Assembly (NCBI GenBank): GCA_964016885.1
Contig: OZ024746.1
Span: forward strand, 18,352,001 to 18,416,000
From: Eledone cirrhosa
Lineage: Eukaryota
Direction: 5' to 3'
Length of the DNA: 64,000 bases
Shown here piece after piece: positions 1 to 48,027 of this stretch. Both the position numbers and the translations under genes were made by a program. Each line of letters opens with the position of its first letter. The first letter of the stretch is position 1. The notes below the pieces were generated by a model. That model searched no databases, was not told the DNA's origin, and saw nothing but the letters and a program-made list of their open reading frames with translations.

Positions 1-108
1 CTATGACTTACTAAAGTAAACAAACCACTATCCGGATGGCCTCCAAAAACAACGGTCACCTTTTTAAAAGGGTACGTCAATATCTATTTGTAAAACTGTT
101 ATATATTG

Positions 109-173
109 TATTTTGTCTGATGAAGGCATACCATGATTTAACTTGGTATCCTTGAAATATGTATAATGAAATA
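109..173 (+). ncRNA. Type I hammerhead ribozyme, family A copy 1
   Basis: Stem I TATTTTGT/ATGAAATA, CTGATGA 117-123, stem II 124-153, GAAA 154-157, minimal stem III, AUA triplet (cut after 165). Confidence 0.75.
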
Positions 174-394
174 AATATGGTTTTATAAATATAGTTTCCA
201 TTTATTAATATTGTATATCTACTCCAAATATTTGTCGAGTGCTTTATATCAGTTATAATAATATTTGCTTGTTGTATCCCAACAATTTAAATAGAACTTT
301 TGCATATATATATATATATATTATGTATAAATATATATATATATATATATATACGATATTAAACAAATGGAAACTATATTTATAAAACCATATT

Positions 395-460
395 TATTTC
401 ATTATACATATTTCAGGGATACCATATTAAAAATATGGCATGCCTTCGTCAGATAAAATA
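395..460 (-). ncRNA. Type I hammerhead ribozyme, family A copy 2
   Basis: Reverse complement of copy 3; CTGACGA 452..446, GAAA 414..411. Confidence 0.75.
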
Positions 461-563
461 CAATATATATAAACAGTTTTATAAATAATTTTGACGTACC
501 CTATTATAATGGTCGCTTATAATAGGGTACGTCAAAATTATTTATAAAACTGTTTATATATTG

Positions 564-629
564 TATTTTATCTGACGAAGGCATGCCATATTTTTAATAT
601 GGTATCCCTGAAATATGTATAATGAAATA
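564..629 (+). ncRNA. Type I hammerhead ribozyme, family A copy 3
   Basis: CTGACGA 572-578, long stem II 579-609, GAAA 610-613, cut after 621. Confidence 0.78.
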
Positions 630-757
630 AATATGGTTTTATAAATATAGTTTCCATTTGTTTAATATCGTATATCTACTCCAAAAACTTGTCGAGTGCT
701 TTATATCAGTTATAAAATATTTACTGGTTGTAACCCAACAATTTTAAATAAAACTTT

Positions 758-760
<3 letters not shown>

Positions 761-833
<73 letters not shown>

Positions 834-956
834 ACATAGATCTATAGAATATGCATACCAACTCTAACACATATATATCCTAGAAACGATCGTAAAATGA
901 TGAATTTTTTTTAATATAAGGAACTGTTTCTTTGTTTATTCATTATTTTATTAATT

Positions 957-991
<35 letters not shown>

Positions 992-1400
992 GTATAAATA
1001 TATATATATATACATATATATTTATGTATGAATATATATATATATATATATATACATATATATATGTATAAATATATATATATATACATATATATATGTG
1101 TGTGTGTGTGTGTGTATATTTATGTGTATATATATATATATATATACATATATACACATAAATATACACACACATATATATATATATATATACACACACA
1201 CATATATATATATTTATACATACATACATATAAATATACATACATATATATAAATATACATACATACATACATATCATCATCATCATTTTAAGTCCGCTT
1301 TTCCCTGCTTGCATACATATATACACACATATATACACAACACACAATTTCATATCAAAAACAATGCAAAACAAATTCATATATATATATATATATATCT
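761..1400. repeat. (TA)n/(CA)n microsatellite-rich tract (representative of many in the window)
   Basis: Direct reading; source of the IYIY/CVCV pseudo-ORFs. Confidence 0.95.
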
Positions 1401-44010: not shown

Positions 44011-44239
44011 CAAGAAACAGGACTTCAGTAGTATATATAACTGGCTGTAAATGAGGTTGGTGTTAGGAAGGGCATCCAGCTGTAGAAATCAAGCCAGAAT
44101 CAGTTCCCGTCCCACCCTTGCAAGCAGGGAAAAAGCGGACGTAAATTGAAATGAAATGATGATGATGAATGATGATGTTTGTTAATAGTTATATATATAT
44201 AAATGTAAATTTAATCTGTGTCATTAAAATTATTAATTA

Positions 44240-44630
44240 TCATCATCATCATCATTTTACGTCCGCTTTTCCCTGCTTGCAAGGGTGGGACGGGAACTGA
44301 TTCTGGCTTGATTTCTACAGCTGGATGCCCTTCCTAACACCAACCTCATGTACAGTGAGTGCTGGGTGCTTTTTTGCCGTGGCACCTCCACGTCCACTTT
44401 ACAGTGTGGGCTGGGTGCTTTTTTTGCCGTGCCACCTCCACAACCACTTTACAGTGGAATGATAGGGACCCGAGTCCCTATCATCTCATTTCTACAGCTG
44501 AGTAAACGGGAGCAATGTGAAATAAAGTGACTTGCTCAAGGAAACAACACATCACCCGGTCTGAGAATTGAACTCACAACCTTTCGATTGCAAGGCCAAT
44601 GCTCTAACCACTAAGCCATGTGCCTCCATT
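44240..44630 (-). mobile_element. tRNA-derived CORE-like SINE with RTE-type 3' tail (representative; similar at 32320-32660, 49335-49710, 1830-2070, 12020-12290, 38505-38780, 45490-45730, 55335-55620)
   Basis: GGCTTAGTGGTTAGAGC..GAGTTCAATTC head, TTGAGCAAG.CACTTTATTTCAC core, (GAT)n tail shared with RTE 3' ends. Confidence 0.75.
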
Positions 44631-44688
44631 AATTATGTATATATATACACACTTTTTAAACATTTTTCCCTATATATTTTCTCTGTAG

Positions 44689-44798
44689 TTCTACCGTGTC
44701 TTGTCTCACCTGTGTCAGCATCAAAGTAAAGAGACAGCTGACAGAATATTGACAGGTCTTGCTGAACAAGCTTTTAGCATTGGGCAGAAGTTATTCAG
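44689..44798 (+). CDS. HACE1: HACE1 coding exon 11
   Basis: FYRVLSHLCQHQSKETADRILTGLAEQAFSIGQKLF(S). Confidence 0.9.
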
Positions 44799-45919
44799 GT
44801 AAAACAAACACTTTATAACTTTGTATTCTTTCTATTGCAGCAAGTAATATATTGTATTTTTTCATCTTTAATTTTATTATATAAAATATGATCAACTGAT
44901 CTCCTTCCCAACAAATGTTTGGGCTTGTGCTTATATAAAAATTATTATTGTTGTTGTTTAGTGCCAAGTCAATCTTGATTAAGCAAAACAATGATAAAAG
45001 GCATTCCGCCAAGACTATCCCATCGTTTTTCAAAACATGATATAACCTGAACCACAGTATCAAAAGTATCCTTTTTAAGACAGTAGGGTGTAATATTTAG
45101 CCTCACATGTCTAAATGGTAAATTTGGTGGATTGGTAGTATCGGTAGAGGGTCGGACGCCATTCTTTCCAGCATAGTTACGTCCCTTTATGGTCTGAGTT
45201 CAAATCCCGTCGAGGTTAACTTTGCCTTTCATCCTTACGGGGTTGATAAAATAAAGTACCAGTAATGCACTGAGTAATTGCTGGCCTTGTGCCAAATGTA
45301 GAAACAATTATTAATTGTATGAGAGCAAATATAGAGCAATGTCGAGCACTCTACTTTGCTTGGAAGTATATCACAATGCCAATATTTGAATTTCTGACCT
45401 AGGTATCAGTATCCCAGAATCTGACTTCCTCAGTCAATGCTCTTCCATTTGCATCTTTTTAATTGTACTTATTATTTATATAATAGCTAGGCACATGGTT
45501 TAGTGGTTAGAGTTGTATTTGCAATTGTGAGGTTGTAAGTTCGATTCTGAGACTATGTTATGCATTATGTCCTTGAGCAAGACACTTTATTTCACGTTGC
45601 TCATTATGCCAGGAGTTGTGTCTGGCAGATATATCAGCAATGAAAAGACCAATGGAAACATTGTTACTTTGGTCTGATTTGATGAGTTCCACCCCACTTG
45701 GTAAGTGAATGAGATCTGGGGTCTTGTCGATCAATTGATCAATCTTCACACAAGGGAGGCTTGTATTCAAACTGTTGAAAATACATTTATATTGAAGCCA
45801 TACATATGATTCTTTGCCAACAACTAGGTAAATATTATTTCAATATGTATATGTAAGACAAATGATTACATTTAAATACTCACTGCTTCTCTCTTTTTTG
45901 ATAATTATTTTTTCCATAG

Positions 45920-46088
45920 TGTGTCAAGTTCTCTAGAATCTGAAGTACAGTGCTTATTACGATGTATAAATTTTCTGTGCAAACTCTATCAACAAGTTTA
46001 CTGTACAAAGCCGAAAACCAAATCTCATAATTCAGTGTCTTTAAATGGTACATCAGCTGCTAACTTGAAGGCCAATAAAATTTTCATG
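45920..46088 (+). CDS. HACE1: HACE1 coding exon 12
   Basis: VSSSLESEVQCLLRCINFLCKLY...KANKIFM; phases match neighbours. Confidence 0.9.
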
Positions 46089-46810
46089 GTAAGCAATATA
46101 GATTTTTTCTTGCTACTTTTATGTGTTTAATATTGTCCATCTCATTTCCATATTTCTACTTTCTTCATCCTTGTTCTGCTTTTTTTCCTTCCTTCTTTCC
46201 AAGGTTGGATAAAGCATATGAATTATATGCTGCAGTTTTGATTATATCCCTCCTGTATGATTTAAACCTATGGTTTTTATCTTTTAAGGCACTTTTTAAG
46301 TTTGAATTATTATGATATTAAGGTCAACTTTGCCTTTCATCCTTTCAAGATCGATAAAAATGCTGTCCTTGACAGGTAAAAATTAGTGACCATATAATTA
46401 AGATGATTAAGATGCAGCAAACTGGCAGAGTCGTTAGAACATCGGATAGAATGCTTTGTGGTATTCGTTCTGGCTCTCTGAGTTCAAATCCTGCCATGGT
46501 CAACTTACCCTTTCATCCATTCAAGATCGATAAACAAAAAAAAAGTACTGGGGTCTATCCTGCCTCTATATGGTGATGGTTCTTTATTGTAGTTGGAATG
46601 AGAGGAAAGGACAAGCTAGAAAATAAGACATCTATAATTTGAATGTTATAGAAACATATCCAACATTTTTACTTATAGTCTTCAATATATTGTTTGAGTA
46701 TTGTTGATTTGTTAAAAATGTTTTTTTTTTATTGTTTTATTGTTATTATAATTCTTTACATTTAATTTTTATTTTTATTTACATTGTCATAATCAACATC
46801 ATCGTCACAG

Positions 46811-47265
46811 CCATTAGAGGTCTTATGGAAATTGCTTGGAGACTGGCTTAACCTTTTGGAAGACGAGTTCAATAATATTGGCTCAAAACAGGGTGATAAA
46901 GAATCATGCATAGACAGTGAAATAGTGAAAACAAAAACTACAAATGTGAGTGCCACACTTGAGGTGGCTAAAGACCAGGAGATCAAAGAAGTGTCAGAAG
47001 AATGGACACATGAGGACTCTTCTGCCAACAATACTGAAGAAGCAGAAGAAGAATCAACAAACGACTCAAAACATAGTCCACCATTAGTTACAGAATTAGA
47101 TACAGAAAGTAAAGATCTCTTGACAAATAATGAACCTAATATGGCAGCACTTGCTATTCAGGGTCTGCCTGTTAGAAATGAAGATATTATCACTGCTACA
47201 GTGCCTCGAATATGTGCTGTTATACAGGCTTTCTATCAGTGCTGCACGTGTTTAACACCGAAACC
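46811..47265 (+). CDS. HACE1: HACE1 coding exon 13 (with long acidic linker)
   Basis: PLEVLWKLLGDWL...DIITATVPRICAVIQAFYQCCTCLTPK(P); matches PLELLW..LDEWL and AVIQAFY.CC.C. Confidence 0.93.
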
Positions 47266-47486
47266 GTAAGTTGGGTTTTATTGTTTTATCTCTCCTTCAT
47301 TAAAGATTACATTATATAATTTATCTCTATACAATTATCATTTGATTTTATTAGAATTAAAATAGTTTAATTTTTTCTATGAAAATAAATTAAAATAATA
47401 ATTTAGTTATGGGTGAGTGAAAAATCTGTTATTACAACCATTGTTATCTATGATATACAACCATCATATTGTAATTATTTCCATAG

Positions 47487-47555
47487 ATTGACACCACCAA
47501 CGTTCATAGATTTTGTCAGCTGTCATAATAAAGTATTGAAGTCTTTGGTTGCCAG
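47487..47555 (+). CDS. HACE1: HACE1 coding exon 14
   Basis: LTPPTFIDFVSCHNKVLKSLVA(R). Confidence 0.93.
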
Positions 47556-47863
47556 GTAAGTTTCTGGAACATTTTCACTTTATTTTTTTTTTTTTTTAAA
47601 TTTATTTGAAGAATTTGTTGCATCTTTTCATACTATACAGAGTCTACCCTCCAAAATATATACACACTTCAGAAAAAGAAAAAATTGTATAAATGTTTAA
47701 CTTGTTTAAATAACTCTCTCTATGTATATTTTTTTCCATTTCTTAGAGGGTGCTACCCCCCCCCCTCCCTATCAGGCTAAAAGTTAGTTCTTTAGTTGAA
47801 AAATATGGTGAAATTTTCTATTTCTAATTTCAAACTCACTTGCTGTTTCTAAACATGGAAAAT

Positions 47864-48027
47864 ATAGGAAAAAGTATGACCTCGACGGCAGAGCTCAAGC
47901 CGTTTCGAAACGGCTTGAGCTCTGCCGTCGGGGTCATACTTTTTCCTATTTCCCACTCTACTATCCTAAGTATTGAGTAATCTGGTGCATTATGGTCCAT
48001 CTGGTTCCTTACCACAATTCCTTTGTT
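47864..48027 (+). mobile_element. Family D fold-back element with hammerhead 3' half
   Basis: 43-bp-arm palindrome centred on TTTC|GAAA (47906/47907), then a unique tail and (TA)n. Confidence 0.55.

Follow-up and report, generated by a model that had tools for sequence, protein, structure and literature searches.

Intronic hammerhead ribozymes of Eledone cirrhosa as probable parts of Penelope-like elements and retrozymes

Why do the introns of two protein-coding genes hold a whole series of hammerhead ribozyme motifs, and do these ribozymes act on the transcripts that carry them? This question is raised by a 64,000-nt stretch of the 3.0-Gb genome of Eledone cirrhosa (OZ024746.1:18,352,001-18,416,000; called the window below), for which an original prediction had described hammerheads of short retroelement families inside introns of DENND5 and HACE1. 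We consider it probable that three of the families found there (A, C, and E) are ends of autonomous Penelope-like elements (PLEs) and that two others (B and D) are retrozymes copied in trans into (TA)n. This account builds on directly observed properties, i.e., the structure of the motifs, their linkage to open reading frames (ORFs), how long the units are, a pair of fixed 3' ends, and genome-wide counts. The elements are well explained as two known kinds, Hydra-type PLEs and retrozymes that lack long terminal repeats (non-LTR retrozymes); useful additions are an integration footprint on retrozymes, a breakpoint hotspot in stem II of the ribozyme, and the density of the motifs.

Hammerhead motifs and the families that carry them

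Type I hammerheads were identified with a structural descriptor built on the core consensus of these ribozymes, using 30 local dinucleotide shuffles and the reversed sequence as controls. Six complete motifs were found in the window and none in any of the shuffles or the reversed sequence: Family A supplies five of the six (117+, 452-, 572+, 1578+, and 32041+), and 28057+, which has a U3-A8 core, belongs to family B. Two more motifs have an intact core and a damaged stem I (40577+ with the 3' strand deleted and 36338- with a C-A closing pair). Half motifs at 1552-, ~27540+, 28336+, 32249+, ~36513+, and 47907+/47910- were assigned to repeat families through homology, since half motifs by themselves are not above chance (38 lines in the window versus a shuffle mean of 30). 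The descriptor counts are low because its final version is blind to family D (U-U at the base of stem II) and to most of family C. No hammerhead family was returned by an Rfam scan at E ≤ 1, a result that is uninformative because these variants fit the Rfam families poorly.

Descriptor and homology together bear out the predicted hammerheads and half-hammerheads, and terminal redundancy, inversions, the U3-A8 variant, and a palindromic stem III are all present, with inversion breakpoints located where they had been placed. Several families are indeed involved, though five (A–E) and not three or four, and the claim that all motifs abut (TA)n applies to 15 of 16 arms, i.e., all but the minus arm at 47864 have (TA)n within 6 nt of their end. 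In a set of 79 distinct A/E motifs, core position 7 can be any of the four bases, and stem II varies in sequence between subfamilies with its pairing kept. A complete copy of family C shows three stems in its minimum free energy fold. These motifs resemble the minimal hammerheads of PMC4209133 (comparisons with published systems refer, here and below, to the relevant passages of each source) in being type I with a palindromic helix III and U3-A8, in occurring mostly as single motifs of truncated PLEs, and in forming dual motifs on opposite strands 100–700 bp apart. They differ in that the base of stem II is mostly A-U in A/E instead of a highly conserved G-C and that, in C, stem II is long and stem III is a hairpin whose loop is palindromic.

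Copies of family A across the genome reach variable lengths upstream, and 10 kb of sequence fetched from there contained a decayed ORF for reverse transcriptase and endonuclease (RT-EN). The family A RT has 38,372 first-look candidates in the genome, and 147 scored candidates were 93–100% identical (one being the query) with open frames of up to 781 aa. Among 20 loci picked for long frames or top score, family A lies on the sense strand 1.3–1.7 kb downstream of the ORF in 19, and several of them have a second pseudo-long terminal repeat (pLTR) upstream of the ORF; the unit measures 3.9–4.2 kb with a 3' untranslated region (UTR) of 1.3–1.7 kb. Family C was found downstream of EN in 19 of the 20 best EN loci (one being the query locus). 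For family E, 15 loci selected by UTR showed the C-terminus of an EN-like ORF upstream in 7 cases and the hammerhead downstream in 14. Over 726 aa, the proteins of A and C share 38% identity, and they have RWR, DKT, CxCX5C, and CxxC without CCHH, with RT and GIY-YIG domains assigned by motif reading. Because these motifs match the description of the Hydra clade of C-terminal EN+ PLEs, including its hammerheads and (TA)n (Craig et al. 2021, PMC8557442), we assign A, C, and E on sequence grounds as 5'-truncated 3' pLTR ends of autonomous Hydra-type RT-GIY-YIG elements.

Like that clade, these elements have a single ORF of RT plus C-terminal GIY-YIG with DKT, CxCX5C, and CxxC/CxH and no CCHH, a pLTR hammerhead, a (TA)n target, partial tandems, an inverted 5' arm, and a one-sided tail. 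Unlike it, A and C have RWR where RWK is described, A units exceed the general size of <3 kb, tails are 80–85 nt long instead of the 30–40 nt given for PLEs, and copies are very numerous, many of their ORFs being near-intact (all PMC8557442). The families may already be catalogued, e.g., among the octopus Hydra families in the supplements of that paper. Further PLE types of the genome carry long intact RT-GIY-YIG ORFs of 938–1096 aa (sampled loci L110:3809-6622, L112, L113, and L120), and the type at L110 has a U3-A8 minimal hammerhead of its own in each of both pLTRs.

Families B and D are non-coding tandem repeats. The period is 591–595 nt in B (20 intervals, part of them from loci that overlap), with a GC content of 0.42 and a longest open frame of 86 aa, and 420–426 nt in D, with a longest open frame of 61 aa; each unit of either family holds one type I hammerhead. 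Judged by sequence criteria, both are likely non-LTR retrozymes, which likewise are built of tandem units that lack an ORF and contain a single type I hammerhead (PMC7229834; preprint 10.64898/2026.07.22.740005), have a GC content below 45%, and coexist with PLEs (PMC7229834). The U-U mismatch at the stem II base of D resembles axolotl HHR_Amex2, whereas the 591 nt of B exceed the usual 170–400 nt. The predicted description of all families as non-coding retroelements thus holds for the ORF-less B and D and fails for A, C, and E with their linked ORFs, and the autonomous PLE sharing the 3' ends that had been proposed as a search target was found for A, C, and E and, among the sampled PLE pLTRs, for neither B nor D.

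Family B was also encountered as one closed 591-nt contig of low depth and 99% identity in two public sequencing runs of two studies, runs of unrecorded kind in which the contig fits a circle or tandem DNA equally. The two runs carry labels of two other organisms, and RNA, diet, or contamination are possible sources; the search found no RNA holder among the runs listed. A diverged B-like sequence upstream of one B insertion suggests that older related families exist.

Integration footprint and breakpoints

The footprint of family B was determined from 65 arms at 40 loci of contig C1. All but four arms (61/65) end at either of two sites that are 168 nt apart (32 and 29 arms), and TA comes next in 61 of 61. 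Both ends lie at the two sites in 19 of 22 head-to-head pairs, and in 18 of these 19 each site is used once; with a duplicated locus removed, this is true of 17 of 18 pairs (~7e-5 against a 50:50 expectation, calculated by hand). Two 3' ends are also seen in A (~83 nt apart), C (~80 nt), and D (~55 nt), and in all four families they fall within the repeating unit, downstream of where cleavage is predicted. Since the ends are internal to the unit and the tail of full-length A and C copies leads into that of the next ORF leader, this implies a template that is circular or tandem, as was proposed before (PMC4209133). Inverted pairs joining different families were considered and found in only 1 of 155 junctions, while the arms belong to the same family in the other 154, so that the arms of a pair come from one family. 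Two apparent cross-family head-to-head junctions, E/C and A/C, have no (TA)n between their arms.

A one-sided tail plus an inverted arm is a described PLE trait (PMC8557442, PMC3846280). In the Penelope of Adineta vaga, too, one inverted pLTR may carry a tail, inverted junctions have palindromes (interpreted there as self-priming), and mobilization in trans via pLTR sequences is described (Arkhipova et al. 2013, PMC3846280). Mobilization of animal non-LTR retrozymes by PLEs has been argued from co-occurrence and pLTR homology (PMC7229834; 10.64898/2026.07.22.740005), whereas B and D showed no homology to the sampled PLE pLTRs and are tied to PLEs by their footprint. The predicted link between PLEs and retrozymes holds. 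This footprint on B insertions, with two fixed 3' ends at (TA)n and one per arm, is possibly unreported, and the open-access literature that we searched held no prior statement of such an argument for retrozymes. Young retrozymes with a PLE footprint next to near-intact Hydra-type ORFs make a retrotransposition assay in cis and trans feasible and the role of the pLTR hammerhead testable.

A plausible course of events begins with tandem transcripts that would self-cleave as dimers via the palindromic stem III and then be ligated to circles. GIY-YIG would nick (TA)n, and the RT would find its primer position at a TAT downstream of the cleavage site, then run round the template to give 1.x to 5 units. 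Resolution of the second end at a second internal site would leave an inverted pair with one tailed and one untailed arm. In family C, the long stem II probably stalls the RT or lets the cDNA fold back, creating ~200-bp palindromes with half ribozymes.

Inversions were predicted to break in or near the ribozyme, which is a real hotspot only in family C and not in B, where the hammerhead contains 5' ends (11/65 versus 12 expected, p = 0.87) and junction-only breakpoints (10/46 versus 8.5 expected, p = 0.57) at chance level. A cluster of B ends near stem III (4/65 at 81–92 nt plus the window copy) was noted post hoc and lies partly at the selection boundary. Of 24 arms of family A, whose subfamilies diverge upstream, four have their end on the 3' side of stem II. 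For family C, we used the first 30 pattern matches on contig C1, where three insertions give both arms: 20 of the 5' ends lie 5–24 nt upstream of GAAA, two at 36 and 58, and eight reach at least 84 nt, and in loci not chosen for C, 15 of 16 matches are equally short. The zone of 5–24 nt is the 3' strand of the long stem II, ending at its apex in the fold of a complete copy, and most C copies are therefore half ribozymes. This hotspot is possibly unreported; it differs from the junctions of A. vaga Penelope in being tied to hammerhead stem II and to one family (PMC3846280). A splice-site cause was dropped as the ends scatter around AG and not at it. In three C copies the 5' junction, located at the apex of stem II, shows additional runs of T, which suggests RT stutter.

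A tail motif (ACTC, 8–18 nt, GAGT(A/G)C) is common to A, the consensus of C, E, and a further fragment at 40765, and it possibly acts in cis as a signal of Hydra-type elements; as a shared feature it is possibly unreported. In a 400-kb genome sample it occurs 29 times, 22 of them within 90 nt of (TA)5, compared with 1 and 0 for the reversed control. The motif is mutated in the window's C copy, absent from D, and seen in B only as a post hoc variant (shuffle frequency 0.004).

Could other processes have produced these patterns? The C hotspot might mark an internal transcription start and not a structure-induced stop: The boundary at ~-21 to -24 is sharp and matches what we take to be an initiator-like heptamer, the three copies with an extra T run have it there, and D. 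virilis Penelope has an internal promoter. We regard this as rather unlikely and prefer a stall or fold-back because all three C copies that read into the ORF begin farther upstream (one beyond -80 and two at ~-57, where stem II has its base); the boundary also falls at the apex of stem II. Families B and D are tandem and could be satellites derived from an old pLTR and amplified as DNA by unequal crossover or circular DNA, with no RNA step, and local satellite-like amplification is discussed by Li et al. (preprint 10.64898/2026.07.22.740005). Their copies are, however, dispersed, with few units and variable 5' ends, and they show head-to-head inversion and a pair of fixed 3' ends at (TA)n, the same footprint as the autonomous elements, which makes a satellite origin highly improbable. 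Chance motifs or miniature inverted-repeat transposable elements (MITEs), an alternative suggested by the short insertions that often have inverted-repeat flanks at TA, have a negligible probability: The arms vary in length and the ends are unequal, where MITEs have fixed terminal inverted repeats, uniform length, and no retroelement features; the controls gave 0, and three families are linked to RT-EN ORFs. MITEs without conserved cores had been named as the finding that would overturn the prediction, and the cores are conserved.

Several observations weigh against our account of PLE ends and retrozymes. Pfam assigned neither the A ORF nor the C EN fragment to a family, although it recognized RT and GIY-YIG in another two PLE types from the same genome, and the Hydra placement rests on motifs. 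Loci were selected for long ORFs or best scores, and the linkage fractions are not genome fractions. Several C copies of a CAG subfamily have a C3-A8 core mismatch that is predicted to impair catalysis. Comparison of B and D with the sampled PLE UTRs and pLTRs gave no homology beyond simple repeats and separate insertions. Finally, as we read the arm lengths, 6 of 18 B pairs do not fit simple fold-back, since neither arm could have been copied straight from its partner; a central deletion or two templates would be required.

Genome-wide density and host RNA

Very many ribozymes had been predicted for the whole genome, and this is what we found using exact patterns with their reversed versions as controls (0 matches each). 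The core of A is present 40,523 times and that of D 24,157 times, which amounts to at least 64,680 strict complete cores, or at least ~22 per Mb; the 3' halves of C and B number 46,406 and 5,134. The 400-kb sample, i.e., 40 evenly placed stretches of 10 kb, contained 19 complete motifs (control 0) and extrapolates to roughly 0.9–2.2 × 10^5 hammerheads by a hand-worked Poisson range, though it is noisy, with A too frequent and D and B too rare when set against the genome patterns. The axolotl is reported to have 126,247 motifs in 28 Gb, or ~4.5 per Mb (PMC7229834), and our counts are far above the 2,000–9,000 minimal hammerheads of other animals (PMC4209133). Penelope-like expansions are reported for O. 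vulgaris in a paper whose main text is silent on ribozymes (PMC13282606), and among open-access papers on cephalopod retrozymes or hammerheads we found no prior report, with only Craig et al. being relevant. The four largest contigs had 3 motifs in 200 kb of the sample and the smaller ones 16 in 200 kb, so complete hammerheads are ~5x denser on smaller chromosomes, where (TA)n tracts are only 1.5x denser. Such a high density gives statistical power to test introns genome-wide for sense depletion, i.e., for selection against sense intronic ribozymes.

Every hammerhead motif under study is intronic. The four motifs predicted to be sense to their host gene (452-, 28057, 32041, and 40577) do have this orientation, with the last one being defective, and 117, 572, 1578, and 36338 are antisense. 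One possible reading is that every family is a non-coding retroelement in its own right and that host pre-mRNA is cut by the intronic ribozymes, acting singly or paired in trans. More specifically, with ~100,000 hammerheads in families that each have a palindromic stem III in common, abundant retrozyme circles or PLE transcripts might pair with sense intronic copies, including halves, complete active ribozymes in trans, and so cut many host pre-mRNAs, which would make this cleavage depend on transposon RNA; such pairing could also join two templates and yield two-armed insertions. The former reading draws on the at least 64,680 complete cores of A plus D, on three intact sense copies in the window, and on stable stem III homodimers in B (-14.3 kcal/mol) and C (-27 to -31 kcal/mol), yet A, C, and E belong to coding elements, and the complete motifs in the whole of DENND5 and HACE1 split into 4 sense and 4 antisense. 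Two of the three sense copies are, moreover, masked when folded in context: 452- is locked in a long inverted-repeat duplex and 28057 loses stem I (stem I pairing probability 0.0 for both), while 32041 retains ~0.3. Monomers of a minimal PLE hammerhead showed no detectable cleavage in vitro (PMC4209133), and slow cleavage by an intronic hammerhead is compatible with splicing, as cited in PMC2995048. We thus hold this reading to be very unlikely and see hardly any better prospects for widespread cutting in trans.

We take the intronic copies to be likely passengers, for the most part masked or else so slow that they make no difference, and host RNA is probably seldom cut by them; for host-gene biology, they are probably ordinary. 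The stem III of the family A monomer is not predicted in folding, and the preprint 10.64898/2026.07.22.740005 gives cleavage for 1 of 9 retrozyme dimers, with 42–44% of copies being intronic. Caution is advised since eight motifs are too few to test orientation, folding leaves out tertiary contacts, and family B in isolation does fold stem I (P ~0.7).

The insertions and their setting in the window

Gene models from tblastn of DENND5 and HACE1 proteins on 214 kb around the window agree with the predicted location of the motifs inside introns of these genes. DENND5 is on the minus strand with its first coding exon at 6676-6572; window positions 1-6571 fall within its intron 1, and the gene extends 85 kb beyond the window start, where one exon is 93% identical to an Octopus cluster and 85% to Argonauta. 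HACE1 spans 20022-64378 on the plus strand, with coding exons at 20022-63813 and the last exon at 64280-64378, just past the window end; a HACE1 exon shows 57% identity to O. vulgaris.

Three family A insertions lie in DENND5. The first, a putative 5'-truncated and tailed Hydra-type PLE 3' end at 1-306 (+), starts upstream of the window and carries hammerhead 117, antisense to the gene. The inverted insertion at 346-760 consists of a minus arm (346-503) with the short end and the sense hammerhead 452- and a plus arm (505-760) with the tailed end and hammerhead 572+, and that at 1403-1676 of a minus arm (1403-1553) that begins at GAAA as a half ribozyme and a plus arm (1555-1676) with hammerhead 1578. 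In HACE1, pLTRs of family A subfamilies are found at 31995-32222 (+), with the sense hammerhead 32041, and at 40500-40728 (+), with the damaged core 40577 and a 5' end that abuts a LINE fragment.

The family B insertion (27477-28211) in HACE1 intron 1 combines 1.1 units of the 591-nt repeat at 27540-28211 (+), with the sense U3-A8 hammerhead 28057 and end site S1, with an inverted arm at 27477-27540 that has end site S2; a transposase-like fragment, presumably Tc1/mariner-like, is on the minus strand directly to its left (26800-27455). Family D is represented at 36061-36645 (-) by 1.1 units of the ~422-nt repeat on the minus strand with hammerhead 36338-, whose stem I closing pair is broken, and by an inverted arm (36513-36645) that begins in stem III. 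Family C, the candidate second Hydra-type PLE end, forms a diverged palindromic mini-insertion at 28272-28455 with half hammerhead 28336 and a fold-back mini-insertion at 47864-48027, both arms of which begin at GAAA with half hammerheads 47907+ and 47910-. The short end of family E, a putative third Hydra-type PLE, lies at 32248-32298 (+) with a half hammerhead, and a tail-only fragment of a further PLE-like family with the shared tail motif at 40765-40832 (+).

Several copies of LINE fragments with endonuclease plus RT, which we take to be RTE-like, are located at 51100-54200, 16200-17350, and 23170-24700, and HACE1 introns contain minisatellites at 34385-35180 (29 nt, 27 copies) and 58543-59553 (25 nt, 40 copies). 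Near-perfect long inverted repeats are present in introns at 346-760 and 44105-44299; they would form double-stranded RNA and are candidate substrates of A-to-I editing.

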